Position numbers and translations under genes: made by a program
Shown here: positions 1 through 50,249 of the stretch, piece by piece
Position numbering within the stretch: position 1 is the stretch's first letter
How the letters are laid out: each line of letters opens with the position of its first letter
NCBI GenBank assembly: GCA_008632985.1
Contig: QPGO01000014.1
Span: forward strand, 310,001 to 374,000
Length of the DNA: 64,000 nt
Reading direction: 5' to 3'
Origin: Psammoneis japonica
Taxonomy: Eukaryota
Notes under the pieces: generated by a model
The model's database searches: none
Told to the model about the DNA's origin: nothing
The model's input: the letters and a program-made list of their open reading frames with translations, nothing else

Positions 1-1403
1 AAAGCTTTTCTCACTGCAGGTCTTCTTCTCTTTTGGTTGCAAGATTTGTTGCTCTTGTCACCTCTGCCACACAACCACAACTTTGGCCTTGGTCTCTTCT
101 GCTTCTTGTTTTGCCCCCTCCTTTGCCACTCATTGTGCAGATGTTCACTGCAGGTTGGCATTTTGCAAGCACTCAATGTGCTGGTGCCAGCAACTCTTTG
201 GAGCACATGTTGAACTGGCAAGTCAATGTTGCCAAAAGGGAGTCCCACCAGGCTTCCTGTGATTCTCACTTCACTTGTCTTGGCAGTCTGTGTTGTCTGT
301 GGGTTGGCGCCAAAAGGTGCCTGGATGAACTGCAAACTCATGCAGTGACAGGTGCCTGCTGATGCCAAATGACAGGCCAAATGATTCACTCCAAAGAGTG
401 AGACAAGCCAAAAGCCAAAGGCAAATGATCAATGATGGTGAGGAGGTCCTCCACCACACAGAGAATCATTCTTTGAGCCACATCAGGGGACAAAACATCT
501 TTTCTTCAACGCACCCATGGGTCTGTTGCAACTGGCACCCATTTTCTGAAGCAGTGCAAGGTTGGTTGCTTGCTCACTGACAATGCTTGAAAAAACTCAT
601 CAAGCAACAAGTGGGGGGTGAGAACCTTGAAAATCTTGGCTTGAGCCCTCACAACAACAAAAACTGGCAAGGTGCACTCAAAAACAAGTTCCAACTTGAA
701 GGCATCAACACATTGAAGCAAGACCATGGGTTTGTGACCTGCCACTTTTGTCAGCATCACATTGTCTCCAAGACACCTTTCTTCAGCATGCACTGCAGCT
801 GGGCCATGCAGCCAGATTTGTGACAGGATGGAGAAGTCTTGCTTGCCTTCTCCCCTTCTTGTGTGTGTGGGATGATGCACAGTTCAGCTCAGGTGGGTCA
901 TTTGCAGCTGATGGCAATGCTGCTCCTCCAGATTGTTGACTTCCTTGCAAGAAACATTTTCAAAATGATGAGCCAGCATCTTCTTTTCAACCATGTGCTG
1001 GGGGGTGGCTGCAGCAGGTTGAGCTTTCAAAGCACACCACCACACATCACCATCTCAAGCACTCTGCTGCAAAACTGTGTCTTGTGCGTCAAGTCACTCT
1101 CCCCACACATGTCAGGCACTGCTTTCATGACAAGATCCATGTTGTCATTTTTGAAGTCTGTGACTGCATGCCTGTTGAATGAGCTCCAATGGACAGATGC
1201 TGGGGGCACAGCAGCAACCAAATGAGCTCAGTGTGTGCAAAGTTTTTGTCCTGCACACACCAAACACATTGCTCTCTCTTCAATTTTGAAAGCTGGTGGC
1301 AAGAGCTCCTCCTGGTTGTCAAGCTGCAAGCACAACTTTGGCAGCTCACATGGGGCAGCAACAATGGCGTGGCAGTGGCATGGCCAAGCTGTGCACAAAA
1401 AGC
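1..1403. other. Degraded TpA-free, CpG-poor sequence (older repeat/pseudogene) that was the target of the Copia insertion; continues at 8621-~9250
   Basis: No TpA found by eye in 1-1450 and very few CpG. Only short Cys/His-rich ORFs. The same composition resumes after the right TSD. Confidence 0.6.
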
Positions 1404-1597
1404 TGACAGAACACCAAAGGTCGACAATGACAGAGGTGTGAAAGACTCCCTAAAGTGCCAGGACTGTGACAACACGAGCACTGGCAGATGAGAAAGTGAG
1501 AAGCAGATCTCAGAGAGATCTGCTCGTCCATCTAAATGGTCCAGCCATCATCCGCATCCAGTCTGTCCATCCTGTGGTGGGTGCAGATGGGCTGACA
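1404..1597 (-). repeat. 3' LTR of Copia-1
   Basis: Colinear with 8422-8615, 14 substitutions, no indels. Confidence 0.95.
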
Positions 1598-1774
1598 CCC
1601 TCCCCTGATCTGCAACATCTCAAGATGGAGAACAGTGCAGATCAAACCAAAGAACATGGATGATGTGAGGAAAAAACAGAGAGACTGGACATGGGACATG
1701 ACAAGTGTCCATGCCCAATGCGCAATCAAGCAAGGGGGCAATTCACAGCAGGGAGGCCACCGCGGAAAAAAATG

Positions 1775-4700
1775 TCAACAGCAGTGTCCCATCATGCGTC
1801 GAGCGTGGCGAGCGTGTGGCACCCAGCCAAGAGCCTTGGCAAGGTCATCGCTGGGGTTGACAATGCCAGGGACATGTCTTGTGACAATCTTGCCCACTTC
1901 CTTCCATTCTTGGATCGCAAAAAACTGGATCTCAATGTGACAGGAGCGCTCGGTCGGAATCGAGTGATTGATGATCTTGATTGCCGATTCGTTGTCAACA
2001 CATGACGGGGTTGGCTTCGTCTGAGGGAAGCCCAGGTCTTGTAGAACGTGACGAAGGCACAGCACATGCTTGGCAGCAGTTCCAGCAGCACAAAATTCAG
2101 CTTCCGTAGAGCTTGCAGCGGCCACCGATTGGGTCTTGCACCGAAAAGACACAGCAGCACCAGCTGACATGCAAGCACAGCCAGTCGTAGAACGACGGTT
2201 GCGGAGGTCATTGCCATGAGCAGCATCCAAGAAAGCAATGAGTTGATGATCACATGCAGGACAAGGGAACGATGGTAAGGTCGGGTCCGGAGTGAGACGT
2301 TCGAAGGGGCAGGCAGGCAGTTTTGAGTCTCGGGTGGGCTTCTTGCAGTTCAATTCCCAATGCTTGGTGCGGCGAAGGCACTTGCACATTCCTTTGAGCG
2401 CGTCACAGTGAACCACAGCAGGACAGGTCGAGAACTTGGAGAGAGCAGTGACAGCATGCCCAATGTCCAGTTGACAGACAACGCACGCATGCAACAATTC
2501 GCCAAGAAGAGTTCGGCAGCTGAAACCAGCAGCTTGTTGTGGCTCCGCATGCTCCGGGGTTCCTTCAGCTGGGCCAACAGCAGTGTGCAGTTCGCGAACA
2601 GAGTCAACAGGGAGTGGCGCAGCCTTGCAGTCATCGTCGAGTTCCTCGTCCGTCGGTGTCGACCAACCATGTGAGGCACAAACCCGATCTACACAGCTGT
2701 GAACAGCAATGCCAATGGAGTCATCACATTGATGAACATCCACTCCATTGAATTCTTCAATCAAGCCAAGACACTTGAACGGCGGAGAGGTTTCCGATTC
2801 CAATTGGAGAGCTTTGCCAATCTTGTTGTAGATCTTGATCGCAACAGACTCTTCAGGACAAGCGAGAGAGAAATCATCAACCTGATGGAGGAGCAAGATC
2901 TTGTGTCCTTCAAAAGCAGCAGAGCAGATGCATTTGTCATGAGCAGTGTTGCGAAAAAGCAGGTTCACATCAGACAAAATGCCGTTGATGTGCGTCTCCC
3001 AGAGCACGCCGGCTTCTGGGTGTCCTTGGAGTGCATGTTGCATCGGAAGTGCCATGCTCCCATCCAAGTCAATGCCAAATCGAGCCTTGCACCAGGTCGC
3101 GCATGCCTTGTCTGTGGCAACACACACGGGATGTGACGGTCGTGGGGAGTGTGCATGGGCATCACGAGCATCCCCGCCAAAGACAGGATAGCTCATGGTC
3201 GCAGCAAGGGCAAAAAACATGCATTGGATGGGTTGCTCGACACGGGATGAGCACGTCGAGTGGAGACGATGTAGCATCGATGCAGCACGGGGAGATCCAT
3301 CGCAGCACTGTCGAGAGTGCCGTGTGCCATCATGCTTGAGGTCATGTTGCCAATGCGGACGAAGTGCGATGGCATCCTTGGGTCGTTCAATCGGTGCACC
3401 AAACATCCCCAACTCATGGAACTGGTCAAGTTGTTTGAATTCACCTGCATGCCATTCGGGCCATGTGTCCAACTTCTTGAGATGATGGCGGGTGAAAGTG
3501 CCTGAGGCTTGTTCCTCTGGAGCAATGGCGTGAGATGATGCAGCACAGACATTGACTGTGCCATTGTCACAATTGACAAAGAACGGCAGAGGGACATCGT
3601 CATCATCCGTTTCGGAGAAATCAATGTCGGGGTGGCGGATGGCAGCAATGGCACGCATGTCGGCGTTGGTGATTTCCGGAACATGTTCATCATCAGGATC
3701 AGGAGTCGGTGCATGTGTGTTGTGTTCCATCAGAGCACGTTGTAGAGCTTGAGAGTCCAGGCGACGTTCCAGCGCAAATTCAATTTCAAAATGAGTCTTG
3801 CCAGAATCACAGACTTGCTGAAAACGTTTGACAGCCTCCTCTGCCGTGAACACAGGATGATCATCGATCGATGCGACACATGCACCCTTGATCTTGTTGC
3901 GGGTGGCCTTCAAAGAAGAGAAAAGATGCGCAGCAGGAGAACCATGCTTGATGTCAGAGACAAATGCTCGCCGATGGAGATCGTCCGTAGCCAAGGAAAG
4001 TCCAAACGTGGGATCAGCAAATGGTCCCTTCATCGTACGCTTGATGGTCTTGGCAAAAGGATTCCCATGAAAGTGAAACTCATCCATCGTGGTTTCTTCA
4101 GTCTTGGCAGGTAAAGCCTTGCCATCTTGAGCACGTTCCAAGTGAACCACATTCGGCGGAAGAGAGTCGTGGGGAAGATCATTCATGCCCTCATCACAGC
4201 GGATGTGCTTGGCAAGCTTGACACGCGATGTCTCAGTGTCATGCCAAAGAATGTTCTTGGCAGTGTCCGGAAGATGACCTGAGAACATTCCCTTGCAAGA
4301 GACAGACCGAAATTTTGCTGGGCGGTGATTCGACGCACGCACCCACACTCGACAACCAAATGCACGAAAGTTCTTGAAATCATCCTTCCGACCAGCAGCG
4401 AGAGCAATCGGAGCAGCAGGTTGTCCGCGGGATGGCACAGCGTTGTTGATTCAAGTGAAATGATGAAAAGCACAGGGCCAGAATTTTGTGGGCAAATCGG
4501 CACTGATTGGCATCGCCCGGATGGCGTTGGCAACAGACAAATGACTGCGTTCCACTGGGTCACTCTGATTTGAAGCATCTTTTCCTGTAGGACGAATTAC
4601 ATGATGAAAGTCATCCTCGAAGAGTTGCCGAACTTCTGGGTTTTGATGCAGTTCACCTCCTTGATCCATGAGCACACATTTGTCTGGACATTTTGGCGAG

Positions 4701-6133
4701 TGCTCTTCCAGAAAGTGGTGAAGCCAATTCAAAGGGGTTGCCTTGGAGACACGAGTCGCACCATGGAGATGCTTCGTTTTATGATCGTAAATGGCAATCC
4801 AACAAGTCTCGCCATTCAATCCAACACAGTCCTTGGTGCGCTCCGAATTCTTGGAGCGTAGGCCAGAGAAGGAAAAATCAATCGCAAGGCCTTGGTGGGG
4901 TTGGGTGGCAGTGAGAGCAGTGTTCAGACCAGCAGGTTCCTTCGTCTGCTTTGCTTGTGTGCATGTGGGACAAGTGTTGAGGGGAGAGGTTCCGTGAGCA
5001 AACTTGGGGACGCCGTCAACGTGTTTGTGGGCATTGTAAAGGCAGTGATCACTCGGATGACCAAGTCGCTGATGCCACAAAAGACCTTCCGTGTCGGCCT
5101 TGAGAGACTGGACAGGAACATTCTTCTCAGCATGCTTCTCGAAAGGAACATCTTGACAGACACGGGGGATCAACTTGCGTTCATCACGAAGAGCTTCATG
5201 TTGGTGGGTGCGACAAGTCTCAATCACACACACAGAGACCGCTTCACACTCATTGGCAAAAGAAGGATCACTGGTCTTGAGGCGCTCGATGGATGCATCC
5301 AGTTCATCGTTAGATTCCGGGAGAATGAGAGGGTGAGCAAAACATTTTCCACTGATCAATTTCCCATGAACAATGACATCCTGACTCTTGCGCAATCGGT
5401 GTCGTGCAACAAACTTGCAGGTGCCAAGATCTTGGAACTTGAGAATGCAATCGACATTGCAATCTGCGCGACGAGTGCCATTTTGATGGAGCAGTGGTCG
5501 CTCATCGACCAACGTAGATTGGATCTGCGGGTGACAGCATGTACGAACCTCAACACATCCGGCAGAGTTCTCTGCAGGAATCCGCAGGCATCCGAAACCA
5601 ACTGGGACAGCTTGATGGCCAAGGGCGGGATTGACAGCAAGGGGACAGGGATGAGACGGAGTGAATTCTTGGTGTCGATGGAGGAGGTCACGGTCGCCTG
5701 TGCACGCAACATCAGCACCTGCATCGAGTTGAGCACAACGTTCATTCGGAGCAAAATTGACCCCATGGACAGAGCAAGTAGAGCGCAGCAGTTCTGGTTC
5801 AGGAGAGTGAGTTGCTTGGTGTGGATCAATCAGAGCAACTCGAACAGAATTGACTGCAGCAAAACCATCTTCAACGGCCATGTCATCATAGGTGAGATCA
5901 ATGTGTTCCTCAAAATCTGGTGTTTCTGAGGCTTCCCTCCCCTGTTCCACAGGATCCGGAGTGGGAGCAGCATCGACGGTGTCTTCTTGAGGAGCAGGGT
6001 CATCGTCTGGCAATTTGCCAGTGTCAAATGACACCTTCTTGGCAGTGGCAGGGGTGGTGTCCATGTCAATCTGCGGAGAAAGAGGCACTTCAGCGGCAGA
6101 TGACGAGACGGTTAGTCCCTCTTTCAAGGTCAT
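1775..6133 (-). pseudogene. Copia-1 pol (protease, integrase, reverse transcriptase, RNase H), split into ORFs 4451-6133 and 1775-4438
   Basis: LDAGADV protease motif, LWHQRLGH and CPTC integrase zinc region, MDQGGE integrase core, ALQGHPEAG and LHQVDD (CoDi-type RT), DAAHGND/STEAEF/DNESAI RNase H. Only 2 Tyr in the 887-aa ORF. Confidence 0.92.
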
Positions 6134-6498
6134 CTTGCTGACATTAGTCGTGTCTCGGTGAGGAGAAAACGGGCAGCGTCGGAGATCCGAAACTAGCTGC
6201 GACGGCCCAATTGAAAATCCGAGGGCGGAGCACCAGATTTGGTCAAATTTTCAGGGTTTTCATGATGAGGGGGGAGCAGGCCTTGGGGTCCTTGGAACTC
6301 AGAAGCACGCACAGCTGCCTCCCTCTTCAAGAATTGGCAAAAGCGGACATGGAATCCCTTGACACATGGATTGTTCCGCAAGACTGGACAGTCGTCAAAT
6401 GAGTGTTCACCGGAGCAAACGAGACATGGTTTCTTGGAAGCTTCAGTTGGAGTGACTTTCAGCTTGTAAACTGAAGCCGAGTGGACATGGTGAAGGAG

Positions 6499-8274
6499 TC
6501 AATCTTCGTCCGTGGAGGGGAACTCGAGTCCATGCAACTCGTTGCAAAGAGTGTCGAAGGCATCTGAAGACAGAGATTCTGCACCAGCATCTTCAACAGT
6601 GGAGTCATCGACTGGTTCAAGTGGAGGGATCTCGGGGACCTGGAGAGCATTGACATCAATGGTCGTGCGTCGTGTTTCCTCATTGGTGCGGTTCCATTTA
6701 CGGTGGGGATTGGATGGCGTCGCACGGGTGTTGAGGGATGGACCACCCGGTTGGCGGAGGAAATCAGAGAGAGTCTTGACAATCTGTGCATCGGCGCACT
6801 TCTTCTGCACAGCTGGAGACATCCGTTCATCTCTGGCAGCACAAGACAAGAACTTGGAGCACTTGGTGTTCTCAACAAAGATGGTCATCTCTCGTGGATC
6901 ACTCAACGTAGAGTCCGCATCAAAGATGCAGGCACGCAGCTGCAGGAAATCATTGAAAATCATGTGGTGGTCCATCAATGATCGATTGCCTTGGGTGGGA
7001 CAGGAATCAACTGGTCCTGCAGCATCGTGGTCAAAAGCAGGGTGATTCTCGTAGACAATCTGCTTGAGAGCCTTGCACCCATTGCCGCAGCATGATGCAA
7101 CAATCCGATGATGCTTGCTGTTCTTGGGGAACATGTCCGACTTGGATGGGATCTTGTGGAGAGAGCTCTGGGCTTCCTTGCAGTGGATGTACATGCACTG
7201 GGGTGAGTCGTCATCTTTGCCATTTCCAATCTCAAAACCTTTCTCACCACCGTGGTCCTTGGCAAAACACCACAATGGGTGCACGTGGCACCCTGAATCA
7301 AAGGCATGACGTTGGAAATTTTGGCACCATGCGCGCATCCCAGGAGGAGAGTCATCGTGACACACAGGAGGTTCCCTGAACAACATTTTCTGGTCAGGAG
7401 TCGAGCTCATGATGAAAAGAGTGCCATCATCAAGGATGATGCGATCGGATGCATCAATGCAGTGACGGAATCCATGGTCGCAAGGGACGAGAGAACTCTG
7501 GAGAGCAACTTTGCCGTCTTCTTTGCGGTCACAGCGTTCATGAACATCTTTTGGCAGCGTGTTTGGATTGAAGAGGCATTTCGATGTAACGGAAGATGTG
7601 GTGCTTCCGGATGACTTGGCAGAAGCAGCAAAAGGCGGAGCGTGGCTCGACGCATGTGTGTTGAGTGCATTGACTGAGTCACCCACACTCACCGCAGCCG
7701 ATCCTGCAGTTTTCTGAGGAGGAGACAGAGGCTGCTGTTTCTGCTGGTGGGGTGTGAGAGAGAATTCGTTCCAATTGCGACAGCTCCACATCATGTCCGG
7801 ATCAACACGCATGTGTTGGGTAGATGTGGTGATGAACAGAGATTGTTCACCGTTCTGAAGATTCGTCTTGATCATCTTTGACAAGATCGGAGTCGTCAGG
7901 CAGACTGGACGGGGCCTTTGAGGGTCAAGAAGTCTGAACGGGGCTTGATCCACAATCGACTTGATTGATTCTACATCCATGGGATCTGCTGTGCAAGGTG
8001 GAAATGCTTGGTGGATGAAACAATCGCGAAGTGTGTCCGCAAAATCGTTCTTGGGTTGCGCATGCTCTGGATCGTCAAAAAATCGATCGAGATCAGTTGT
8101 GGAGTCCGCACAAACCGCACTCAGGCACTGATGTAGATGTGGTGTCGTTGCATGTGCCTCAAATTCACAGCAGATCTCTGCAATTGACGCAGGAGCGGCT
8201 TTTGAGGTCGGGAGATGCCATGGTTTTAGTGGGTGGAGCCATTTTTTGGTCATGCACGTGTGGAAATCTGGCAT
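6499..8274 (-). pseudogene. Copia-1 gag-like ORF
   Basis: Long ORF between PBS and pol. Homologous to the 5' part of the deleted copy at 30580-31365. Confidence 0.75.
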
Positions 8275-8421
8275 GTTTCTACGACCGTGAAAAATGCCGG
8301 GAAAGCGAGATAAAAAGTTGTCTGATCAGACGATGAGGCTCGCTCGATCGGCTCACAAAACAAATGAATCGAAACAGAGAGCTTGGTGCAGAGGTCTGTG
8401 GCACAGCGCATGGCCACAACC

Positions 8422-8615
8422 TGACAGAATGCCAAAGGTCGACAATGACAGAGGCATGAAAGACTCCCCAAAGCACCAGGACTGTGACAACACGAGTGCC
8501 AGCAGATGAGAAAGTGAGAAGCAGATCTCAGAGAGATCTGCTCGTCCATCTAAATGGTCCAGCCATCATCCGCATCCAGTCTGTCCATCCTACGGTGGGT
8601 GTAGATGGGCTGACA
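8422..8615 (-). repeat. 5' LTR of Copia-1
   Basis: Direct repeat of 1404-1597, followed by TSD AAAGC. Confidence 0.95.
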
Positions 8616-9462
8616 AAAGCCTGCACTGTGGCAAAAAAGACACACAAAACAAGGAGAAGAGAGGGGGGAGAAGATGTCAGAAAAGCCTCTGTCAGCAGTC
8701 AGGCTGCTTTCAACATGAATGAAGATGTCTTGCTGTGTTTGCTTTTGCAGAAAAGTGGCACTTTGAAAGGCATGTTTGCACTGCTGCACTGTGCCTGCTG
8801 TGGTGCAGCTGAGCTTGTTGGCAGCACGCCGTTGCTGCCACATTTTTCTCAAAGAATGATGAGAAGAGGAGAGGGGCGCGGGCCATGCAGAGTGTTTTTG
8901 CCACCCCTTCTCACAGGCTGTGCGTGTGAAAAGGTCAACTGTCCTGCATGCAACACATTGCAAGAGTTCTTGGCAAACACTCCTGCCGTGCTGGGGATTT
9001 CAGACTTTGGCTCTCGTCCACATCAAAGAGACAGTGGCTGGCTGCAGCAGCAGATGTGGGGGCACCAGAGCCACCGCCACACATTGCCGTCTTTGTGACA
9101 TCACGACAATTCATGAGCCATTGTTCAGCTGGAGAAACACACAAGAGACTCAACATGTGTCTTGTGCATTTTATGGCCAATGTCAAGTTTGGGGTGCAAG
9201 TTGTTGCTGTGCCTCAATCTGCAAAACACACCAGCGTCAGGCGGATGGATGGGCGGACGTGGAAGGCTGAATGTTCTGTCTGTCCATCGTCCAAAGATCG
9301 CATCCGCGACGCCGGAGAGTTCGCATCGCGGACAGAAACCGCGGAGAAACTGAAAACACACAACGCACAACGCACCGTCACATCCATCACATCATCAGTT
9401 CACATCAAACTGTAGCAACAACAACAACAACAACAGCAACAACAAGAGTCAAAACATCAACG

Positions 9463-11338
9463 ATGTTCCGAGCGTTCCCAAAGCTAGTTCCAAGGGCCAC
9501 TGCCCGAATTCGGTCTTCTTTGGTTCGTTCTAGCAATAACTTATGGAAGAGTACTACTACGACACCATCGAGGCGATTGGAAGCCATGGTGATTCCGCTT
9601 TCCCGTCGAGGTGCGTATCGAGCCGTGACGGTGGTTGATCCGTCCGAGCAATCCAGAACTAGCGCTTCGAAAAACCTCGGTGGTGCTGTGGCAGCCATGG
9701 TGGCACTCTTGGGGTTATTAGCAACGTCTCCTCAAAACAATAATTCAAAATGCGAGTCCTTGACTCCCGCTGCTGTGGCACAAGATGACATTGATTACAT
9801 CACGTCGGCAAAAGAAGACGACTTGCCCGAGTACACGGCAGAGGAGGTGGCCAAGCACAATGGCCAAGATGGGACAAGTGTGTGGATGACCTATGGTGGG
9901 GTCGTTTATGACGTGACGGATTTTATTGCCAACCATCCCGGTGGATCGGAAAAGATAATCATGGCTGCCGGGTCGGTAAGAAAAAAAAGTGCAAAATGTC
10001 TGACGACTTACGCAAGATCATGTCCTTACCGTTTCTATTTTTCTACAAATCCTCTAGGCCATTGAACCGTACTGGCACTTGTATCGTCAACACTTTGCTA
10101 CCGACTTGCCCATGAAGCTCATGGAACACATGATGATTGGGAGATTGGCCGAAAAGGATCAAGACGAGATTGATGCACAAATGGAACAGATGGTGGACGA
10201 TCCGTACGAATCCGATCCCATGCGACACGCGTCCCTCAAGATTCATTCCGACACACCCATGAATGCCGAGTTGCCCTCGACGCTCTTGACGGAAAACTAT
10301 CTAACGCCTCCGGCGCTTTTTTACATTCGTCATCATCATCCCGTACCCATGGTCAAGAATGTGAACAAGTATCGTCTCAGTGTCGATTTGAAAGCGGTGG
10401 GCATTGAACAAGAATTGAAGCTGTCGTTGGAGGATATAAAGAAATTACCAAAGCACGAGGTTGTTGCAACGCTACAATGCAGTGGCAATCGTCGCAGCGG
10501 TTTCAATCAAGTCCAGCGGACCTCTGGCACGAGCTGGGGACAGGGTGCCATTTCTACCGCCAAGTGGGGCGGAGTGTGGTTGAGGGATGTGTTGGAGATG
10601 GCTGGTCTACAGGATGCAATTGAGGCACAAGAAAAGGATGGAATTGAACACGTCCGTTTCGAGAGCCTGGATGGCATGTCGGCATCGATTGGAATTGAAA
10701 AAGCCATGAACCCATACGGTGATGTGTTGTTGGCGTACGAAATGAATGACGAGCCGCTACCCCGTGACCACGGATATCCGATGCGATTGATAGTTCCAGG
10801 TTACGCTGCAGTCCGCAATGTTAAGTGGCTCAACAAGATTGAGCTGGCAAAAACAGAAGCAGAAGGACCGTGGCAACGCGGATTAAATTACAAAGTGTTG
10901 CCACCCTCCGTGACGGATGCCAAGAATATTCAACTGGAAAAAATGCCAAGCATGACTGAGGTCAGTTTGTTCTCGGGCATCACAAAGGTGGAACGTATCC
11001 AAGAGAGCTCAGGAGAAGTGCTGCTAAAGGTTGGTGGGTGGGCCTGGTCGGGCGGTGGACGCAACATTGTGCGGGTCGACGTGACTCCGGATGGTGGTAA
11101 GACCTGGTGCACGGCAAAGTTTACAAAAGGCAGTGATCAGAAGTTTGGAAGAGCTTGGGCCTGGACATTTTGGGAGTGTGAGGTACCGGCGGCGGTCCGA
11201 GAAGACGGTACGGTAGAACTCGCTTGCAAGGCGGTCGACATGGCTTTCAATGTGCAACCCGAAAAATGTGACCACATGTGGAATGTTCGAGGTCTTGGAA
11301 ACAACAGCTGGTACCGAACTTATGTGCGACTACAGTAG
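9463..11338 (+). CDS. SUOX: Sulfite oxidase (cytochrome b5 + Moco + dimerisation domains), mitochondrial-type presequence; intron 9976-10057
   Basis: YDVTDFIANHPGG b5 motif, FYIRHH, LQCSGNRR, DHGYPMRLIVPG, WNVRGLGNNSW. A phase-0 GT-AG intron joins the two ORFs (AAGS|AIEPYW). Confidence 0.95.
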
Positions 11339-12643: not shown

Positions 12644-12879
12644 GATGTTCACAGTTGTTCACAATGTTGAACGATTGACGGTTGCGCTGCAGGTGAGATG
12701 TTGACGGATGAATAACAGGCAAATCAGGCAAACGAACCGAACTCTCTACGCTGCGCTATCCATACGGTAGTACTCGTAGCTACGTAGGGCCCTACTGTAA
12801 AGAGATAAAAGAAAATGGAAAAAATGAGACAAACCGGCAAACGGGATTAGAATCCGGGACCAACCCGGGACTCGTGTAA

Positions 12880-14030
12880 AACGGCTGCTCTGTGTGCTGT
12901 GCACACAAGGCTGATGAAGTGACAGCATGTTGCCCACCCAGCAAGCGGGCTCGTTGTTAAAAAAAAGTGAAATGCTGTGGTCAAGATCATGTTGCACAAA
13001 ACAATGATGTGCAAAAGAACAAAAATGCTTGGGGACAACTCTTTGCGCAGAGTTTGCTCCTTTGAGCCGGACCAAGGAGGGGCAGCAGCAGAAGCCAAGC
13101 CCCACTCCACCACACTGGCGCCGCTGAGTCTGCATGTTTTCTGCCATGAACCCATGCACTGGTGCACATCAACAAAGTCCAGCAGCCCTGGACTGCATGT
13201 GTGAGTGCTCAGGGTGTTGTGCATGCAGTCGAAAAAAAAGCTTTTTTTTGCGCTGTGTGTGTGTGGCACTTTTTTAAGGGCAGATCCCCATGCGGGTGGC
13301 GGACATTTGCGGGCCTCAAATTTCCCGCACTTCACCGGTCATTTGGACCTGTCATGGAACACTCCCAAACACTTGTGCATTTGACAAACCCTTTCAGGGC
13401 TGTCAGAACACTGCGAGAGCTGTGTGTTGAAGGCTTCAAAAACGCCCGCTTGTCGGCCTGTCCCTGTTGCCCAGTTGAAGTTGCCGCCAACTGTTGCTGC
13501 TCATGGCAAATGAGCCATGACTTTTCAGGAAATGCCAACAATTTGTGTTTGATCAGCTGCAGACACATCCACAGTCGACAAGCCAAATGTCGCACATCAT
13601 GGGCACAACCACTGCCCAGCCATTCTGTGATGACATGTCGCAGGGACAGGGACAAAGTTAGACCTGCAGCATCGCTGGAATTTTTTTTGGCAAATGCACA
13701 TGCTTTTAGTGCAATGAAGAATTTTTTTCCAAAAATTGATGGGTCTGTAAACATCCGCCCTCACCCAAGCACATCCATCCTCAAAGGGGGCGCAGCACAT
13801 GCACACAGTGGGGGGGCACATGATCGTGTTGTGTGTCCTTTCAACATTTTTGCCAATTGGTCATTCAGAAAAGCTTTAACTATCATGTTGTTGCAGGCAA
13901 TGTAGATGGCTTGGCCTCCAGAGATCAGATTTTGCGACCATGGCAAGCATTTGAAGGAAGAAGGAAAGGGAGGCAGGATGGAGTTGGAGGGATTGATGTT
14001 TGTCAAGTTTGTTACTCGTGACTGAAATTT
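12880..14030. other. TpA/CpG-depleted island, degraded unidentified element or gene
   Basis: Abrupt TG/CA-rich composition between two intact genes. Residual minus-strand ORF pieces with no recognisable domain. Confidence 0.55.
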
Positions 14031-23799: not shown

Positions 23800-24322
23800 T
23801 TTTCTTTCTATCGTCGCGGTGGCTTTTTGGTTCTCTCAATGATATGAGAAGGTCGGCAACAGTGAGAAAATGACACAGGCAGTGTCACAATTCACAATCC
23901 TGTGTCTGAGAAAGATCGCGACCAAACCGTGCTGCGTAGAATCTACGCGAAAAAGATACGGAGATTCGACACTTCGTGAGTTGCCTTCCGTGACATCCTG
24001 TAGAATTCTACGAAGTTTTTCCCGTATTGTTTTGGCGGGAAAAAGGAAAGGAATGTCCGCGATGTCAATGTTTCAAAATGCTGCAATCTGATTGGCTAAA
24101 CGACAAACTTCACTCTACTCCGCAATCTTCCCGCCATCCGATCGGCAGAACGAGTCGTCGCGGATCTTTGCTCGCAAATGTCGTGAAGCGAAACGATGGC
24201 CGAGAAGTTAGGTGCCGGTTCTGACAGTGAACAAGAATCAAGGTCAAGGCTGTGCGTTTCGAGAGTTCGATCTCTTTTTTTATTTAATGTCTGCCTTGTT
24301 TCGGTTCCGCCAAGAGCAAAAA

Positions 24323-24850
24323 ATGAGTAATTATCCCTTTCAAAAGACACAAGAAGAGTGGCGTCGGCAATTGACTCCGGAAGAACATCACGTGCTCCGA
24401 GAGGGTGGCACTGAATCGTACGGCAAGGGCGAATTCTGTCGATTCTTTCCCAAAGCTGGTTACTTTGCATGCAAGGCCTGCAAATATCCCCTCTATTCGG
24501 CGGCATCAAAATTTCAAGACCCGGGTTGGGACGCGCACTCCAAGTGTTGTCACAGCAACGACAAGCCTCATATTGGTGTACGAGAGGAGAATGAGGTAAA
24601 ACGAAACCCGTTTTGACTGTGCTCTGTATGGAGTGTTTGCCGTGTAAATAACGCGGTTAATCTTCTTTTTGCAAAACAGGTTTGCTGCAACAACTGCGGA
24701 TCGCACATGGGTCATGTGTTTTCCGAGCGCCGCCATAGCAATACAGGAGAGCGTCAATGAATCAACAGCATATGCGTAGTGCATGTTCCAGATCACCCCC
24801 CTCCGGAAAGCATTTCAGGAGAAGGACCATTGGGTGTGTTTTCAAAGTAA
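24323..24850 (+). CDS. msrB: Methionine-R-sulfoxide reductase B, selenoprotein (in-frame UGA at 24758-24760); intron 24596-24679
   Basis: [23 protein letters not shown] and [12 protein letters not shown] zinc motifs, GERQ-[TGA]-INS at the catalytic RxCxNS position. Reading continues to TAA 24848-24850, with a SECIS downstream. Confidence 0.9.
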
Positions 24851-24904
24851 AAACAAATCTTTAGAATAGAGTGGATTTGCGGAGAGCGGAAGTAAAGGAG
24901 TCTT

Positions 24905-24976
24905 CGTGGATGCGAATGACGGCGTGTGTGATCAAGAAATACATAGCTTGCCAAGCACGCCTGAAAGCATGGCACG
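24905..24976 (+). promoter_or_regulatory. Eukaryotic SECIS element in the msrB 3' UTR
   Basis: Lower stem CGTG.ATGC/GCAT..CACG, core ATGAC (24916) / TGAA (24962), upper stem GGCGTG/CACGCC, apical AAGAAA. Confidence 0.8.
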
Positions 24977-25088
24977 TGGTTTCCTTTTCTCGCTCTGCTG
25001 TCCACATTTTGAATTGAGAAACTGATTTCTTGTCGTGTTTCGTTGAGAGTCGGGTCTACTCGTAGAACAAGGAATGGCAGTTCTCTAG

Positions 25089-28493: not shown

Positions 28494-28759
28494 CTAGTGG
28501 TCGATTGGTGTTGTATGCCTTTTTCAGTTTATCATCTTTTTTATGAACATCTCTACCAGTGGATACTGCTTTTTCCATCCCAGCCAGGTTAGATATAGGA
28601 AGGAACGTAAAGGCGATAGTGTTGGCGGGGAATTCGTGTTGCATGAAATTCGAGCTCCGCACTCTCAAAAACTGTAGACTTTTCGAAAATGCGTCAGAAA
28701 GCTCGGCTGCGCCGTTTCGCAACAAAAGAAACTTTTTTTGGCAAATGCCCACAACTTTA

Positions 28760-30194
28760 ACAATGTCACCACAACACACCCAAGACACCACTGCTGTCAA
28801 CAATTGTCACACATCATTTGTGGAATTTGTTTGTTGACTCAGCGATGTGACAGCAGTCATTTTGAAGGATGAGGCACTTTTGACTTTTGAGTCACAAAAC
28901 CATCTTCACAAGGCATCAGCGCGAATGTCTGTGTGAGCACACAAGAAACCAAAAAACCGCAACTTGGCATTGTTCTTCATTGTCCACACAACACATTTGA
29001 TTGCTTGCCCTTGCAAAGCAACCATTTTTGAAGGACGAGAGGCATTTTGTGTCTTTTCCTCAAATTTTTGCTGAGATTTGAAACTTGCTCAGGACTCTGC
29101 AAGAATTTGCTGCCTGTGATTCAGCCCTTCACTGGCCGAGTGTTCAGAGAGAATGTTTTCATCAATGGCTGGCATCATGGGGGCTTGCTGCTGACTGCTG
29201 TTGCAAAAAGAGAGATTCTGTTCTTGGTCAGCTTTGTTGGCATGATCGATTGTGTTGCTGAAAAAATGTGCAAAAAGTGCGCTCTGGTTTGAGTTGACCC
29301 CGTGCCCCTCTGCACTTGCAAGCAAGGCAACAATGAGAGATGGAGGTGCAAAGGTTTTTCTGTTGCAGGGAATTCCTTGTTTGGCCCTTGATTTCCTCCG
29401 ACAAGGAAAGATGAGGAGGAAACCAGATGAGGAAAAAATGGTTGTCATGGCTCGCTGCGAAGAAGTTTGTTCTGGCATCATCCTTTCATCCACTGGCATC
29501 ATCCTTTCATCCACTGGCAGCAAACTTTTTTCTGCTGGCAGCAGACTTGTCCAGAGCATGCAGCTGCTAAAACACTTTAGATGCTGCGTTGGACAAGTGA
29601 GGCAAATGCTGTTGGGGGGACCACATTGTGGGAATCATGGGACCAACACAACAATGCCATTCTCATGGTCATGATTTGGACACTGGCAAATCCGTGCACA
29701 ACGGCATGACACAGAGGCAGAAGTCCAGACTGCATGCTTGTGGTCTGGCAATTGCTTGGCCAAGGATTGATTCAGTTGACGAACATCTCACTCACTCCAC
29801 TCACAGGCTTTGAAATTGGTTGGCAATCATCAGCCCCAAGTTTAAATCCAGCATCTGTGAAGCAAAACGGCTGGCTTTGCAAGGCACTCATGCTGTTGCC
29901 AGCTGCTTTGGCATGGCATCACCTGATGGTGATGCCAATTCAGGCTGATTGCTGCATGCCCCTGCCGCACTTTAAGTGCGCTGGGGGTGTGGGTCAGCTT
30001 GTTTGTCGGAGTTGCGGGGCGGAAGTGCAGCAGCACCTTAAAAACAGATTGTGGGTTTTGTTTTGTTGGGGAGCATGTTGTTGGACAATGAAAAATTGAT
30101 TGTTGCAACATGGCTGCAAGTTGCAACCAACACGGCACTTTTGTCCAGCAGTTGACTCATCCTGTTGCAAGTGACAGAATCCACAGCTGCCAAA
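28760..30194. other. Heavily degraded TpA/CpG-poor sequence, continues at 31792-32380
   Basis: Composition only. Interrupted by the deleted Copia copy. Confidence 0.5.
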
Positions 30195-31786
30195 TGTCAG
30201 CCCAACTGTCCCATGACAGACAGACTGTGTGTGGATGATGATCATTCAGACAGATGAGCAGATCACTCTGAGATCTGCCTCTCACTTTTTTTCACTGGTG
30301 CTCATGTTGTCACAGTCCTGCAACAGTGATTGGGGAGTCCATTGTGCCATTGTCTCAATTGCCCTTCGGTGTTCTGTGAGGTTGTGGCCTCACGCTGTGC
30401 CACTGAACTCTGTGCCACACTTTCCATTTTGGTTCATTTGCTTTGTGAGCCAATCAAGCAAGCCTCATCTTTTGCTCCCAAAAGCATGCTTTGTGAGCCA
30501 ATCAAGCGAGCCTCATCTTTTGTTCCCAAAAGCATTTCTTTCTCACTTTCCTGGCATTTTTCATGCTTGTTGAAACACACCAGATTTCCTTGTGTGCATG
30601 ACCAAAATTGTTTTCACCAGATGCAACCATGGCCATCTCCTGGCCCTGCAAAAGCCACTCCCACAACTGTTGCAGAGATCTGCTGTGATTTCCAACCACA
30701 TGTCACCACACCGCATCTCCACGCATCTCTGAAAGGGCTTTGCATGGACTCCACATTTCATCTGGATCTGTTCTTTGAAGACCCTGAGCATGCTCAACCT
30801 GAGAAGAACATCGCGGACTTGTTTCATGATCATCTTGTCAATCAAGCATTCCCACCTTGCACAACAGACCTCGCCAACACACAGTCTGTCAAAGCAATTG
30901 TGGATCAAGCACCTCTTCAAGTTGTTGACCCTGACAAGCCTTGTGTGTTTTGCTTGACTCCTGAAGCTCCATCTTCCATGATCAAATTGACTCTTCAGAA
31001 TCACAGACAATCTTCACACATTCTCGTGTCAATGCAGCATGCCCACATTGATCCTGACATGCAATGGAATTGTGGAGATCGGAACAAGTTTTCTCTAACT
31101 CCTGGATGCACAACTGTTGTTGGTGTGAATGATCTGGCAGCAGCGCTCAAAGAGTTTGCATCAAAAGCCAAGTTCTGCCTTTGACTGCTGCTGGCAAGAC
31201 ATCAGGAAGCGCTGCATTGTCCACAACATCAAAACACCCATTCAACCCCAACACTCCACCCAAGGATGTTCACGAACGTTGTGATCACAAGGAATGTGGT
31301 GACATCACATTGAAGAGCTCGCTCACTCATTTTGACCATGGACACCATCACTGTGTTGATGCCAAGGCTCCAGGATGGGTGCTCCATGCTTGCCATGCTC
31401 AACACATGATGGGACACTGCCGCTGATGTTTTTTTTTCGTGGCGGCCTTCCTGCTGCACATTGCCCCCTTGTTTGTTGCACATTGGACTTGGACACTTGT
31501 TGTGTCCTTTGGTCTCCATCCCCACATCATCCCTGTTCTGTGGATTGATCTGCATTGTCTTTCATTTTTAGACATTGCAGATCAGGGGGGAGGGTGTCAG
31601 CCTGTCTGTCCCGCAATGGACAGACTGCACATGGATGATGACCAGACCATTTTTTGGACAGACAAGCAGATCTCTCTGAGATCTGCCTCTCACTTCTTCT
31701 TTTCTGCCAATGCTCATGTCATTACAGTCCCAGTGCTCAGGGAGTCCATCACACCATTGTCCTCATTGCCCTTCAGTGTTCTGTTG
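30195..31786 (+). mobile_element. Internally deleted (TRIM-like) relative of Copia-1
   Basis: LTRs 30195-30379 and 31595-31786 homologous to Copia-1 LTRs, TSD CCAAA on both sides, PBS-like GGTTGTGGCC, PPT AGGGGGAAGGG. 5' gag is fused near 31365 to the last codons of RNase H. Confidence 0.88.
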
Positions 31787-32403
31787 CCAAAACACTTGCC
31801 AACAACTTCTTTTTCAATGCCGCGCCAACTGCGCTCAATGGGCAAGGCAGATGATGCCATTGGGGACCACATTCTTGAGGACAAAGAGATGAGCTCCAAT
31901 GGTCTCTTCCAGCTTCTTGTTCTGTCCCAGCTGAGTCCACAACAAGCTCAAGTTGGGAGAAAGTTGTTCAACACATGCGTTTGGCAACAAGAGCTCCTTG
32001 ATCTTTCTCTGGCTGCCCGCATTGTCATCTTCGACAATCGCTGTCATGACAAGTTGTGTTCCATGTTGCCGGCGCGCTCTTGTCATTGTGCTTTTGTTCT
32101 CTCAGGCTTTGTTGCTGACAGTCGCGTGCCTAAAAACAATGTGCAGGCACACCACAGCCATCCCTGCTTGTTGTTCATGAGCTCGAATTTGCACACAGAG
32201 ACACAATGCTCCAGAGCATGTCTGTGCATTTGCACAGATTTGCACCAGTCGCATTGTAGAGTGATGTTGTTTGCCTGCCCCAATGAACTCTTTCTTGTGC
32301 ACAAAACACTTCTCAAGCCTGCCGGATGGGTTGGAGGCACATTTTCTTGGTGCAAGCACGTGGAATTTAATGCAGCTGCACACAGATGGTCTCTGGAGAC
32401 CAT

Positions 32404-34209
32404 GGAGTCACCTCAAAGTTGTTGAAACTGTGACTCAAATTGAAAAGCTTTCATCCTTGAACAATTTCACAAAATTTTGCAGTGTCTGCATTGTGGCACT
32501 GTTGGCAAATTGGGCTGCACAAAATTCAGCCTGTTGCCCATCACACATGCAAGCAATGAACAGCTGCACTTGGCGCTTTGTGTGGCTTTCAACAACAAGA
32601 AAGCAATTGCAGCATTTGTTGCCAAATGACTTTCAACAATGTTTTGTTGAAAGTTGTTAACTTTCAACACTTTTTTGTTGAAAGTCGTGACAACTTTTTG
32701 TTGAAACAAGTGACTTTCAACAACTGCTTTTTGTTGAAAGACACAACTTTCAACAACCTCGCCAGAAAATGCATTGGCACAAAAATCTGATTGGACAAGT
32801 GACGTGGTCTGAGACAAGCACGCATGACCAATGTGCATCATTGAATGCAGCATGTGGAACAATTCCCACTTTGCACAGCAGCAAACTGCAGCGCAGCACA
32901 ATGAAGCAAGCCGACGGTGTCCCACTTTACAGCGTGATGTCTCAACAATGCTTGCACCATTTTCCCGTTTCTTTTTTCATCATTGGGAGCAATTGCACAA
33001 TGCGTCCTGCTGGGTTTGCCCCATTGTGTGTCATTGAGAATTGTGGAATTCTGTTTTGTTTGAAACCTCAAAGCAGCTTCAAATTTGGAGAAGCATGCAC
33101 AAAGGATGCAGGTCAGTGCCACTCAATTCTCAGTGGTGCTGTCACCAGTGTTCTCACTTCTGAGTCTCTCATTGATTCCAACAAGACTCAGAACAGCAGG
33201 TGGGATTGCCAGGCTCAGAGCACAGAGCAGCCAATGGTTTGGCACCAGTGTTTCACTCAGAGCTGCAGATGGTGCCTGATGATGCACTGGGTGAGATGGA
33301 AGTGCATTGGAAGGCAGCTCACTTGGAGCCATCAAAGGTGCTCCGCTGTTGGCAGATTTTAAGAAATTAAGAATTCTGAAACCACTGCAGCCAAAAAATC
33401 TGAAACTGCTGTGTTGCACACTCTGAAGCTGCCACCACAAACTTTGAAACTGCTGCCATGAATTGTCAAACTGCCAGAACCACCAAACCAGCACTGAACT
33501 GCTGAGCCAACTTCAAGCCACTCTTGGTGGCTTTGGCAAGGCATGCATCACTCCAGCTGTTGTCATCACGATCTTTGACTTTTGTGTCGCCCAACTGCAG
33601 TGCAACCCTGAGAACAATGGCTGTCAGTGACCCTGACATGTGTCTCCTCCTCAATGGACAAACGGCTCACCCTTCACCCACCACAATGTCAGCTGGAATT
33701 GGGTTCACCACTCTTTGATGTGTGGTCAATGATGCAATTGAGGCATGATTTCAGGTTGAAAGAGCTGTTGAATGCACTGACTTTCAAGAGAATGTTTTTG
33801 TTGAAAGCACAACTTTCAACAAAAAGTTGTTGAAAGATCTAACTTTCAATGGATTTTTTTTTAAGATCTAACTTTCAACAGATTTTTTTGAAAGATCCAA
33901 CTTTCAACAGATTTTTTTGAAAGATCTAACTTTCAACAACTTTTTTGTTGAAAGATCTAACTTTCAACAACTTGTTGTTGAAAGTTGGTTGTCTGTTGAG
34001 TTGTGACAGCAAACTCAATGTGAAACATCTGTGGCTGAGTGTTTTCACACAAGGAAAAGGCAATTGTGTTGTCTTCAATGGACGCATGTTGCACAGCACG
34101 CAAAAATGTCCATTTTGTCAGAGTCAACAGCGGGAATCAGATGCACTGTGCCTGCATGCACAAGCACAACAGGACAGCTTTGAGCTTTCAACAGATTTGA
34201 GGTGACTCC
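32404..34209. mobile_element. Degraded non-autonomous TIR DNA element with subterminal palindromic arrays
   Basis: TIR GGAGTCACCTCAAAGTTGTTGAAA / TTTCAACAGATTTGAGGTGACTCC. Arrays of ACTTTCAACAA...TTGTTGAAAG at ~32628-32757 and ~33780-33986. Confidence 0.7.
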
Positions 34210-40200: not shown

Positions 40201-40267
40201 GAGTGACGTTTTTGTCGCTGATGACAGTCTTTGCAACGGCGGGTCACAATGACCATTCTGACGATTT

Positions 40268-40449
40268 TGCAAGATCTAGCTTGAGATGACTTGACAAAAG
40301 TTGTGGGAGAACCAAGAAGAGACCCGATCAGCGCAATCGCTGATTGGAACTGACTTCCAACGGCTTCCTGAGTGTCCAATGCATCAGTCAATGTGCATGT
40401 GTCAGAGAGGGCACACTTGGTCATAAAGTGCATGTGCCCATCTCATTCA
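40268..40449 (-). repeat. Gypsy 3' LTR (TpA-depleted copy)
   Basis: Colinear with 45744-45925, 17 transitions. Confidence 0.95.
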
Positions 40450-40499
40450 CTCTTCCCCTCCATGGTGCAAGGAACACGCGCACCATTGGAACCACTTGA

Positions 40500-43400: not shown

Positions 43401-44035
43401 TCACACCCATCATCGCATCCACAGTCCGACTCGTCTTCATGATTTTCATCAAATTCATCCATTCGATCTAAAGCCACACACCAGTCACAAGATTTGGACC
43501 AATGACGAGGTTCCTTCATTGGGATCACATGGTCCAGCCATCGCAGTGTCCTCGCATCATAGTTCAGGTTGAGACCAATCTTGTCCAAGAAGTCTCGACC
43601 CAAAATGATGTCATGCACACACGGAGCATCAAATGCGTGAGCCACACAGCTGTCAATCCTCCCAGTTTTGTCAAATTCTGGTGACACGACATCGCTCAAG
43701 GCTGCCCAACGACCCGATTGGAAAGGACCAGCCACGGTTTGGAAAGCTCTGACTCCATGTTCGTCAACAGATGGTGTGGCTCCTCGAGGTAAAACTTGGG
43801 ACAAAATCACAGTGTGAGAACCACCTGAATCGAACAAAACACGCATCACACGATTTGACTCATGCCATTGGATTGATTTTGCAACAAGCAGTGCAGATGG
43901 GACCAATGCGGTGCGCGAGACTTGCGAACTCATTTTGGGGAGAGGAACATTGTGTTCAAATGCATCTTGATCAAACACATCCCCCTCTTCATTCATGTAA
44001 TTTTCTGCAGCATTTTCAAATTCAGTGGGTGACAA
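40500..44035 (-). pseudogene. Gypsy pol (protease, RT, RNase H, integrase), frameshifted
   Basis: LFDSGGSHT protease, KLDL and TCVDD (from YxDD) RT, CTDASDCQMGA and EKELLA RNase H, HxxLGH/CDAC, VDLIGP, HDNGGEF, NSICERMH integrase. Confidence 0.92.
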
Positions 44036-44173
44036 TTCGTCAGGATTTTCAAAACAATCAAAAGCAAAACATTCATCATTTCATTCAGGCAAAACACAAT
44101 CATTTTCTTCAACAAATGCTTCTCTCACAGGCAATTGGGAGCATTCAGCTCCGGAGCATTCAGCTCCTTCTTC

Positions 44174-45430: not shown

Positions 45431-45743
45431 TTTCAGCGATCAAATGATCAACTGTCCACAAGACAAACGAAACAAAACGTTCCCAATTGATCCACACAAC
45501 GAGAACAATCAATGACCAAACAATGACGAATTCAAGAGTGGCAACACGAGATTCGAGTTCAAACAAATGCTGTTCCGAATCGCCAATTTCACGAGTGTAA
45601 TTGCGCTGCACTTCTGATCGACTTCGAATGAAATTTTCTGCACGAGCTCGCAAACAAATTTTCTCTCTTCTCGACAACACTCTTCGCGTTGTCATAAAGT
45701 TGACAATGCAATGAACAAGCTATGACAACGACTGTAATTACAG

Positions 45744-45925
45744 TGCAAGATCTAGCTTGAGATGACTTGATAAAAGTTGTGGGAGAACCGAGAAGAGACC
45801 CGATCAGCGCAATCGCTGATCGGAACTGACTTCTAACGGCTTCCTGAATATCTAATACGTTAGTTAATATACATATATCAGAGAGGGCACACTTGGTCAT
45901 AAAGTACATGTGCCTATCTCATTCA
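45744..45925 (-). repeat. Gypsy 5' LTR (TpA-intact copy)
   Basis: Direct repeat of 40268-40449. Retains 15 TpA, including a TATA-like tract. Confidence 0.95.
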
Positions 45926-49733: not shown

Positions 49734-50249
49734 ATGAGCAATTGTCCCTTTCAAAAAACAGAAGAAGAGTGACATTGGCAATTGACTTTGGAAGAATGTC
49801 ATGTGCTTCAAGAGGGTGGCACCGAATCATGCTTTGATTCTTTCCCAAAACTGGTTGCTTTGCACGCAAGGCCTGCAAACACCCCCTGCATTCAGTGGCA
49901 TCAAAATTTCAAGACATGGGTTGGGACATGCACTCCAAGTGTCATTGTGGCAATGGCAAGCCTCACATTGGTGTGCAAGAGAAAAATGAGTTGAGACAAA
50001 ACTCACCTTGGCTGTGCTTGGTGTGTCAAGTGTTTGCCACTCAAGCAATGCGCTTGCTCCCCTTTTGCAAGACAGGTTTGCTGCAACAGCTGAGGGTCGC
50101 ACATGGGTGCCATGTGTTTTCTGAGCACCACCACAGCAATGCAGGAGAGCATTGGCAAATCAACAGCTCATGCATGGTGCACGTGCCAGACGACCCCCAC
50201 CTGGAAAGCATTTCAGTGAGAAAGACCGTTGGGTGTGTTTTCAAAGCAA
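49734..50249 (+). pseudogene. msrB: Hypermutated paralogue of msrB (intron retained, Sec codon and SECIS degraded)
   Basis: Colinear with 24323-24850 including intron and 3' flank. Homology extends ~49670-50625. Former TAA stop reads CAA. Confidence 0.9.

Follow-up and report, generated by a model that had tools for sequence, protein, structure and literature searches.

In the repeat-induced point mutation (RIP) of ascomycetes, C changes to T, mostly as CpA>TpA, and the process enriches TpA, creates stop codons, and strikes both copies of a duplication. TpA-specific hypermutation has been described in the chlorarachniophyte Bigelowiella natans, where the targets are integrated nucleocytoplasmic large DNA virus (NCLDV) and virophage DNA (Mettrop et al., April 2026, bioRxiv 10.64898/2026.01.13.699255; statements on this preprint and the other cited papers refer to the portions of text available). 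Of the 231 mutations that the integrated NCLDV and virophage gained in mutation-accumulation lines, 230 were A>G or T>C; every one of these hit TpA, the rate was about 6e-7 per site per generation, or roughly 1000-fold above background, and only some of the lines were affected (bioRxiv 10.64898/2026.01.13.699255). The genome contains 124 clusters of windows poor in TpA and rich in CpA plus TpG, its TpA-poor genes are enriched in reverse-transcriptase and DDE domains, and an ADAT2-like DNA adenine deaminase was proposed, which is unproven (bioRxiv 10.64898/2026.01.13.699255). The available text of the preprint holds 0 occurrences of 'CpG' and does not mention diatoms (bioRxiv 10.64898/2026.01.13.699255). 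Here we analyze 64,000 nucleotides of the diatom Psammoneis japonica (assembly GCA_008632985.1, contig QPGO01000014.1, positions 310,001 to 374,000; hereafter the window, numbered from its first letter), in which a Ty1/copia long terminal repeat (LTR) retrotransposon at 1404-8615, a gypsy element, and a host gene fragment have lost TpA and CpG to CA and TG. We consider it likely that these are the marks of a dinucleotide-specific, in-place hypermutation of transposon-bearing chromatin domains in the diatom, accompanied by CpG decay. Our literature search found no diatom report of TpA-directed or RIP-like hypermutation, and the case is best filed as an extension, to diatoms and LTR retrotransposons, of the TpA-specific hypermutation so far reported in one unrelated alga, not as something categorically new.

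The element at 1404-8615 is a diatom (CoDi-like) Ty1/copia LTR retrotransposon coded on the minus strand. Its parts are as follows.

1399..1403, no strand: target-site duplication (TSD) AAAGC, left copy; identical to the 5 bases that follow 8615
1404..1597, minus strand: LTR (3' in element orientation) with TG..CA ends; 2 TpA and 4 CpG remain
1598..1606, minus strand: polypurine tract AGGGGAGGG (coding strand), adjoining the 3' LTR, read from the sequence
1775..4438, minus strand: 887-aa open reading frame (ORF) with the SH3_retrovirus, RVT_2, and RNase H part of the Ty1/copia polyprotein, from Pfam and homologues
4451..6133, minus strand: 560-aa ORF with gag_pre-integrs, the protease/integrase part, from Pfam
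6499..8274, minus strand: 591-aa ORF, presumed gag region; no Pfam family
8422..8615, minus strand: LTR (5' in element orientation); 3 TpA and 5 CpG remain
8616..8620, no strand: TSD AAAGC, right copy, matching the left copy

The TG..CA ends and the 5-bp AAAGC duplication on both sides identify 1404-1597 and 8422-8615 as the two LTRs of a single insertion. Aligned without gaps over 194 bp each, they had 14 mismatched bases and 0 indels. At five adjacent pairs (1412/13, 1437/38, 1456/57, 1479/80, and 1482/83) a CA of one LTR faces a TG of its partner, three sites read TA against CA or TG (1451, 1574, and 1584), and one read CG against TG (1575). All 14 mismatches were transitions and all fell within pyrimidine-purine (YpR) steps, which span 92 of the 194 LTR positions; the other 102 positions held 0 differences. 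In 200,000 random draws of 14 LTR positions, 14/14 in YpR positions came up at a frequency of 2e-5 and at least six adjacent pairs at 9e-5. The first-pass annotation of this sequence had reported these same counts with nothing else differing, and the pairwise alignment that it named as a check reproduced its list exactly. Its warning that LTR dating would overestimate the age of the element holds as well, with a raw divergence of 14/194 (7.2%) against 0/102 outside YpR steps. Its further claim, that the process acted in situ after integration, is supported by an intact TSD around LTRs that differ only at these dinucleotides.

The minus-strand order of gag_pre-integrs (4451-6133) followed by SH3_retrovirus and RVT_2 (1775-4438) places the integrase (INT) ahead of the reverse transcriptase (RT), which is the Ty1/copia order. 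RVT_2 scored 24.6 bits, below the Pfam cut-off of 31.6, as is expected of a mutated copy. The polyprotein had 74 relatives in a large protein collection, the best of them 56% identical, and the named relatives were all from diatoms (Cylindrotheca, Nitzschia inconspicua, and Fragilaria). The locus holds no intact, potentially active polyprotein: the coding region is split into three separate ORFs, and 21/22 conserved tyrosines have been replaced. We found 24 ORFs of at least 100 codons in the copia region, and the long ORFs of the element span 560-887 codons. Under the genetic code, TA>TG/CA changes remove Tyr codons and the stops TAA and TAG without making new stops, so that long frames appear in all six readings and long ORFs persist in this dead element. 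An exact-pattern scan of collected genome contigs with the conserved LTR core returned 0 stretches. One older relative lies elsewhere in the window.

30195..31784, plus strand: older copia-related fragment with LTR-like and gag-like parts, 68-77% identity, in the opposite orientation

Conserved codons give the direction of change. The RT and INT ORFs were compared in an alignment with 24 copia polyproteins of diatoms, and a column counted as conserved where at least 80% of homologues agreed; the gag ORF was left out of all codon counts, its alignment being unusable (76/257 'conserved' columns kept, with many multi-step changes). The two ORFs kept 447 of the 551 conserved columns and changed 104. 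Conserved Tyr was kept in 1/22 columns, with 13 changed to Cys, 6 to His, and 2 to Phe, far more than conserved residues lost overall (Fisher p = 2e-15), and Tyr made up 0.2% of the 887-aa RT ORF against 3.4% in homologues. Because TAY to TGY or CAY is equal to TpA to TpG or CpA, the loss of 21/22 Tyr points to TpA as the main ancestral target. A single TA>TG/CA step accounts for 39 of the 104 changed columns and CG>TG/CA for 14, and the remainder consists of 11 other transitions, 22 transversions, and 18 multi-step changes. Conserved Arg was kept in 31/44 columns, and its changes include 4 to His, 4 to Cys, and 1 to Gln. CpG decay is a second, slower component beside the loss of TpA.

A second retrotransposon serves as an internal control.

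40263-40267 and 45926-45930, no strand: TSD GATTT flanking the gypsy element
40268..45925, minus strand: Ty3/gypsy LTR retrotransposon with RVP (weak), RVT_1, and RT_RNaseH_2
40268..40449, minus strand: gypsy LTR (3' in element orientation), hypermutated; 13/15 TpA and 3/7 CpG changed relative to its partner
45744..45925, minus strand: gypsy LTR (5' in element orientation), pristine; observed/expected ratio (O/E) of TA 0.99 and of CG 0.89

The edge of a TpA-depleted block runs about 225 bases inside this element, so that the pristine LTR, 71 bases from the host ORF 45997-47283, is outside the block; the element apart from that LTR has a TA O/E of 0.11. The LTR pair had 17 mismatches. At 13 of these, TA in the right LTR corresponds to 6 CA and 7 TG in the left; three more are CG on the right and CA or TG on the left, and one is another transition. 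All 16 YpR differences therefore run one way, from TA or CG on the right to CA or TG on the left, and the two LTRs retain in common 2 TpA and 4 CpG.

Host sequence inside a block carries the same signature.

24269..25086, plus strand: host MsrB (SelR) gene region, 818 bases of normal composition; 27 TpA and 44 CpG
49680..50472, plus strand: hypermutated copy of an MsrB fragment, inside TpA-depleted block 3; 1 TpA and 10 CpG left

The MsrB copies are 76% identical and 25 kb apart. With the gene copy at 24269-25086 taken as ancestral, 23/23 TpA and 32/40 CpG had become CA or TG in the block copy, and 6 substitutions ran in the opposite direction. Candidate routes for the arrival of the fragment are capture by an element and segmental duplication. 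Strand-coherent runs of outcomes were absent (31 runs where 28.5 were expected, and 9 where 9.0 were). Together, the gypsy and MsrB controls show that the process works on integrated DNA and reaches non-transposon sequence inside a block. They thereby support the in situ action proposed in the first-pass annotation, to which we add that CpG decay also runs in the depleted blocks and that rare CA<->TG flips in single lineages also exist.

The O/E values for the whole window (TA 0.35, CA 1.45, TG 1.39, and CG 0.71) are averages that hide two compositional states, namely depleted blocks and a normal remainder.

1..9531, no strand: TpA-depleted block 1; TA O/E 0.08, CG 0.60
12807..13877, no strand: small TpA-depleted block between host genes; TA O/E 0.10, CG 0.47
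28609..45721, no strand: TpA-depleted block 2, old transposon debris and the gypsy body; TA O/E 0.07, CG 0.43
47678..50564, no strand: TpA-depleted block 3, holding the MsrB pseudogene copy; TA O/E 0.05, CG 0.16
54427..55169, no strand: small TpA-depleted block; TA O/E 0.14, CG 0.39

The signature was confined to regions of foreign or selfish DNA, with TA O/E of 0.05-0.14 in the five blocks against 0.53-0.65 in the host remainder, where CG is about 1.0. Within the three large blocks, whole or in part, CA and TG O/E were 1.4-1.95, and block edges were sharp at a scale of a few hundred bases. Host-gene ORFs in the window contain about 3% Tyr. The gene adjoining the copia block (9271-11335) has cytochrome b5, molybdopterin oxidoreductase, and dimerization domains, which make it a sulfite oxidase, and is 68-71% identical to diatom proteins, so that the diatom of the window has nothing closely matching it among the proteins searched. 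TA and CG have thus changed to CA and TG after integration, in sharp-edged blocks, with host genes remaining normal. Across blocks and their parts CG O/E ranged from 0.05 to 0.74. TpA loss saturates early, as the copia element within block 1 has a TA O/E of 0.10 with CG still at 0.70, and CG keeps dropping in older debris (0.27 at 28609-40267 and 0.05 at 1-1398). The copia flanks are both nearly TpA-free, with TA O/E of 0.00 on the left (1-1398) and 0.06 on the right (8621-9531); their CpG depletion is very unequal (CG O/E 0.05 and 0.58), and both have single-copy depth in the public sequencing run described below. They may not be one old element.

Targeting by this process appears to follow a chromatin or methylation domain and not repetition as such. 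The same chemistry could instead be set off by a repeat-induced, homology-sensing trigger like that of fungal RIP. Our window resembles RIP in its defense-like dinucleotide transitions in chromosomal transposons, inflated LTR divergence, and leakage into adjacent sequence (PMC2621366, PMC7296669), the affected DNA is mostly repetitive, and DNMT4, a relative of fungal RID whose function is unknown, occurs in diatoms other than P. tricornutum (PMC9998398). Unlike RIP, the changes here go in the opposite direction, with TpA lost, CA and TG gained, and no stops made. Of the gypsy LTRs, identical at birth and equally repeated, only the one in the block was mutated, which favors a domain bound over a homology sensor, and the block edge lies inside the element. 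Of the two MsrB copies, again only the one in the block was struck; selection on the working copy could mimic this result and so weaken it as an argument for a domain bound. An exact 231-bp direct duplicate in host DNA (17404-17634 and 17768-17998, 364 bases apart), which covers the 3' end of, and the sequence just past, the LtrA-like host ORF 16601-17602, kept its 6 TpA and 15 CpG untouched. The B. natans target, moreover, is single-copy in the available text (bioRxiv 10.64898/2026.01.13.699255). We regard a homology-sensing trigger as unlikely.

Public reads were used to examine the window and other copies of the element. Run X1 contained 57% of sampled words of the stretch, and runs X2 and X3 added almost nothing more; no RNA data set containing the stretch was listed. 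X1 contigs, whose single-copy depth is about 64, gave 0 other letters over 219-1446 and 2 over 8562-10935 (9126 and 10558, both outside the LTR). They run from unique flank into each LTR and bear out the letters at 1412/13, 1437/38, 8592/93, and 8602. The interior of the element has a read depth of 1564-4416, which indicates some 25-70 copies, and 203/223 variable places among them are transitions. Variant states were listed for 40 of 224 variable places, with 29 listed places inside the copia element and none at the five reciprocal sites. Among these 29 listed places, 13 had a majority CG where the window copy has CA or TG, 3 a majority TA where it has TG, and 7 were mixed; the other 6 rows (3 sites) had a majority CA where it has TG. 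Such majority-CA sites are either single-lineage CA>TG flips or the result of amplification of partly mutated copies.

Scanning metagenome contigs with the RT alignment recovered 39 related copia RT loci (L001-L039), in which TA O/E of the RT region ranged from 0.10 to 1.02 and the loss of conserved Tyr tracked TA O/E. Loci at both ends of the series are given here with their conserved Tyr.

L006: 1/14 kept; 8 to Cys, 3 to His, 2 other
L038: 2/13 kept; 9 to Cys, 2 to His
L005: 3/18 kept; 12 to Cys, 3 to His
L003: 17/19 kept; 1 to Cys, 1 to His
L012: 10/10 kept
L037: 9/9 kept

L016 and L029 are also of note beside L006, L038, and L005, and the series runs from a normal end, with a TpA O/E of about 0.7 and every conserved Tyr retained, down to a TpA O/E of 0.10 with 1/14 retained. 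This graded series shows that the signature is not unique to the assembly of the window, and it bears on a possible artefact in which the sequencer misreads modified bases of transposon chromatin, differently on each strand, so that a true TA comes out as CA or TG. The signature is limited to regions expected to be heavily modified, and there is no record of the sequencing platform behind either the assembly or X1. Yet X1 contigs of even depth (about 64) reproduce LTR-specific letters joined to unique flanks, separate metagenome assemblies share the graded signature in related elements, and a pristine and a mutated LTR belong to one gypsy element. The B. natans changes, furthermore, come from Illumina sequencing of mutation-accumulation lines (bioRxiv 10.64898/2026.01.13.699255). 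We give such an artefact hardly any credence.

The abundance of family copies raises the question of gene conversion. Differences between the copia LTRs might have been made by ectopic conversion, or by ADAR- or APOBEC-like editing of RNA or cDNA before integration. Roughly 25-70 copies with predominantly transitional variation would be ample conversion donors, and the CA shared by the majority at some sites suggests that partly mutated copies have been amplified. ADAR and APOBEC3 produce deaminase transitions with a 5' neighbor preference that are fossilized in retroelements, as here, and ADAR prefers U before the edited A (cited in bioRxiv 10.64898/2026.01.13.699255). Editing of this kind, however, precedes integration, is strand-coherent, and is common to both LTRs: two LTRs copied from one template cannot come out different, as they do here, and outcomes in the window alternate between strands, without the coherent runs of hyper-editing clusters. 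A host gene fragment and flanks of single-copy depth are depleted too, and converted variants would still have to arise in place somewhere. We therefore judge this origin highly unlikely.

For the ancestral state of the five reciprocal sites we fitted a two-copy decay model, in which a TpA is lost with probability p per LTR and becomes CA or TG with equal likelihood. Under this model a share p²/2 of the original TpA ends up reciprocal, and an equal share ends up alike in both LTRs and hence invisible. The observed TpA classes (1 kept in both LTRs, 3 in one, and 5 reciprocal) gave a fitted p of 0.81, close to the loss of 13/15 TpA in the gypsy LTR and of 21/22 Tyr codons. A TA origin of the five sites had a log-likelihood (lnL) of -11.38 against -17.46 for a CG origin (4 kept in both LTRs, 1 in one, and 5 reciprocal). 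This fit, taken with the slowness of flips described below, leads us to regard most if not all of the five sites as probable former TpA.

The CG origin belongs to a reading in which ordinary 5-methylcytosine (5mC) decay alone made the differences, the five sites having been CpG and deaminated on opposite strands. Deamination of 5mC takes CG to TG or CA on either strand in methylated repeats, and it would cover the CG part of our data and the one CG/TG site. Diatom transposons are CpG-methylated (PMC2806351, PMC9998398), so the CpG component in the window is most simply 5mC deamination, which is visible in the CG depletion of the blocks, in the 13 of 29 listed places where the majority has CG, and in the conversion of conserved Arg to His, Cys, or Gln at 9/44 columns. 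It is certain for 1/9 LTR sites. With 4 CpG surviving intact in both copia LTRs and one site of CG against TG, however, five double hits fit badly, as the likelihoods indicate. Unlike 5mC deamination, the process in the window also destroys TpA and turns Tyr into Cys or His; neither the loss of 21/22 Tyr codons nor a TA O/E of 0.1 can be accounted for by CpG decay. As the whole explanation it is very unlikely.

A further possibility is that each reciprocal site started as CA or TG and that one LTR then flipped, either by two transitions via TA or CG or by a concerted tandem change, such as deamination of C and A together on one strand. Flips do occur: in the MsrB copy 5/50 CA went to TG and 4/59 TG to CA, and the three internal sites of the element with a majority CA and TG in the window copy could be further cases. 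Flips are nevertheless rare, at 8% of sites where 80% of CpG is gone. Scaled by hand via CpG decay, of which 1/10 site-copies in the LTRs is gone, the two LTRs, with 74 CA/TG site-copies, should hold about 0.4 flips, and the Poisson chance of at least five is 6e-5. No flip was found among 68 conserved His, Gln, Cys, and Trp codons of the copia element (0/68 against 5/74 LTR site-copies, Fisher p = 0.059) or among 21 sites in the gypsy LTR (0/21). Flipping is thus an improbable source of the five sites.

Under in-place hypermutation, each TpA would become TpG or CpA by an A to G change on either strand, nearly to saturation, with other sites barely changed, and CpG in the same domains would go to TpG or CpA more slowly, most simply by methyl-cytosine deamination. 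The five CA/TG sites would be ancestral TpA struck independently in both LTRs on opposite strands, and about equally many sites would have taken both hits on one and the same strand, which leaves them invisible. The chemistry may be conversion of A to inosine, which is read as G, by a DNA-acting adenine deaminase; this suggestion borrows from the proposal for B. natans. Alternatively, thymine might be oxidized. Oxidized thymine (5hmU or 5fU) can mispair with G. It is also possible that one enzyme acts on both A and C in place of a separate 5mC deamination. As a more speculative extension, a chromatin-guided defense in diatoms that deaminates A at TpA (and perhaps C at CpG with the same enzyme) might be homologous to the B. 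natans system and ancestral to stramenopiles, alveolates, and rhizarians (SAR) or older, which we consider possible, though doubtful. Two other candidates were rejected. GC-biased gene conversion is not dinucleotide-specific and runs opposite to CpG loss. Selection against TpA does not apply to dead elements, which are not under selection, and the LTRs of one element differ.

Several observations weigh against in-place hypermutation at TpA as we have put it. Neither a responsible enzyme nor a modified base nor a mutation arising de novo was seen. The letters that the five sites had before mutation were deduced and not observed, and four LTR copies in the window have solely CA or TG there. Polarizing changes by a 'pristine' partner copy is an assumption. 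The MsrB block copy carries 9/109 flips in total, and the three majority-CA sites at which the window copy has TG (5290/91, 5962/63, and 8032/33) have CA shares of 0.86-0.92. In the five most mutated copies (the window copia ORFs and metagenome loci L006, L038, L005, and L016), Tyr>Cys exceeded Tyr>His by 46 to 17 (p = 3e-4), an unexplained excess that could reflect a context preference or a sense-strand bias; a 3' neighbor A occurred at 5/36 changed adenines against 15/36 unchanged adenines on the other strand, a preference that is only suggestive. X1 may be the data of the window's own assembly, and the metagenome loci, though from separate assemblies, could belong to this diatom or to one related to it. 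Finally, CpG decay runs alongside TpA loss here and is not reported in the available B. natans text, so the two systems may differ.

The likeness to B. natans, within what the available preprint text covers, is nonetheless close (bioRxiv 10.64898/2026.01.13.699255). In both, A>G and T>C changes occur at TpA, here in 13/17 gypsy LTR differences, 23/23 MsrB TpA, and 19/22 conserved Tyr that became Cys or His. Integrated DNA was mutated in place in both, as LTR pairs with intact TSDs in the window differ only or almost only at these dinucleotides. Both also show TpA-depleted, CpA- and TpG-enriched clusters in regions of foreign origin only, with the rest of the genome normal. Unlike B. natans, a rhizarian with viral targets, our host is a stramenopile diatom, in which the process struck two superfamilies of LTR retrotransposon as well as a gene fragment. 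Depletion in the window is near saturation (O/E 0.05-0.1) compared with a Rho of 0.45 in the B. natans NCLDV region, and the rate is inferred from fossils here and was measured in B. natans; in the copia LTRs about 80% of TpA changed against 0 differences at the 102 non-YpR positions.

If this process is real, TpA hypermutation reaches diatoms, which are major and experimentally tractable algae, and acts to near saturation on LTR retrotransposons with sharp domain edges and clean in-place controls. Its enzyme, its guide (methylation, histone marks, or small RNA), and its age would become testable, and an editing defense of this kind would quickly erase Tyr codons and regulatory TA-rich motifs. 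For genome annotation, LTR-divergence dating is badly inflated in such genomes and k-mer methods see mutated copies as single-copy. The loss of TAA and TAG leaves dead elements with long ORFs in six frames that mislead gene finders, and profile searches are weakened, as with RVT_2 above.

Two minor features of the window remain. Around the small depleted blocks, searching for TG..CA ends flanked by 5-bp duplications gave chance-level candidates only. The best, 12816-13867, has GAAAA on both sides and is a possible solo LTR, although the scan yields such matches by chance. Imperfect 33-bp tandem repeats occupy 19078-19557, with 9 copies of a 165-nt register that are 65-85% alike; the array lies in a G+C-rich stretch (59%) inside the long ORF 18448-20460 on the minus strand, which matched no Pfam family.

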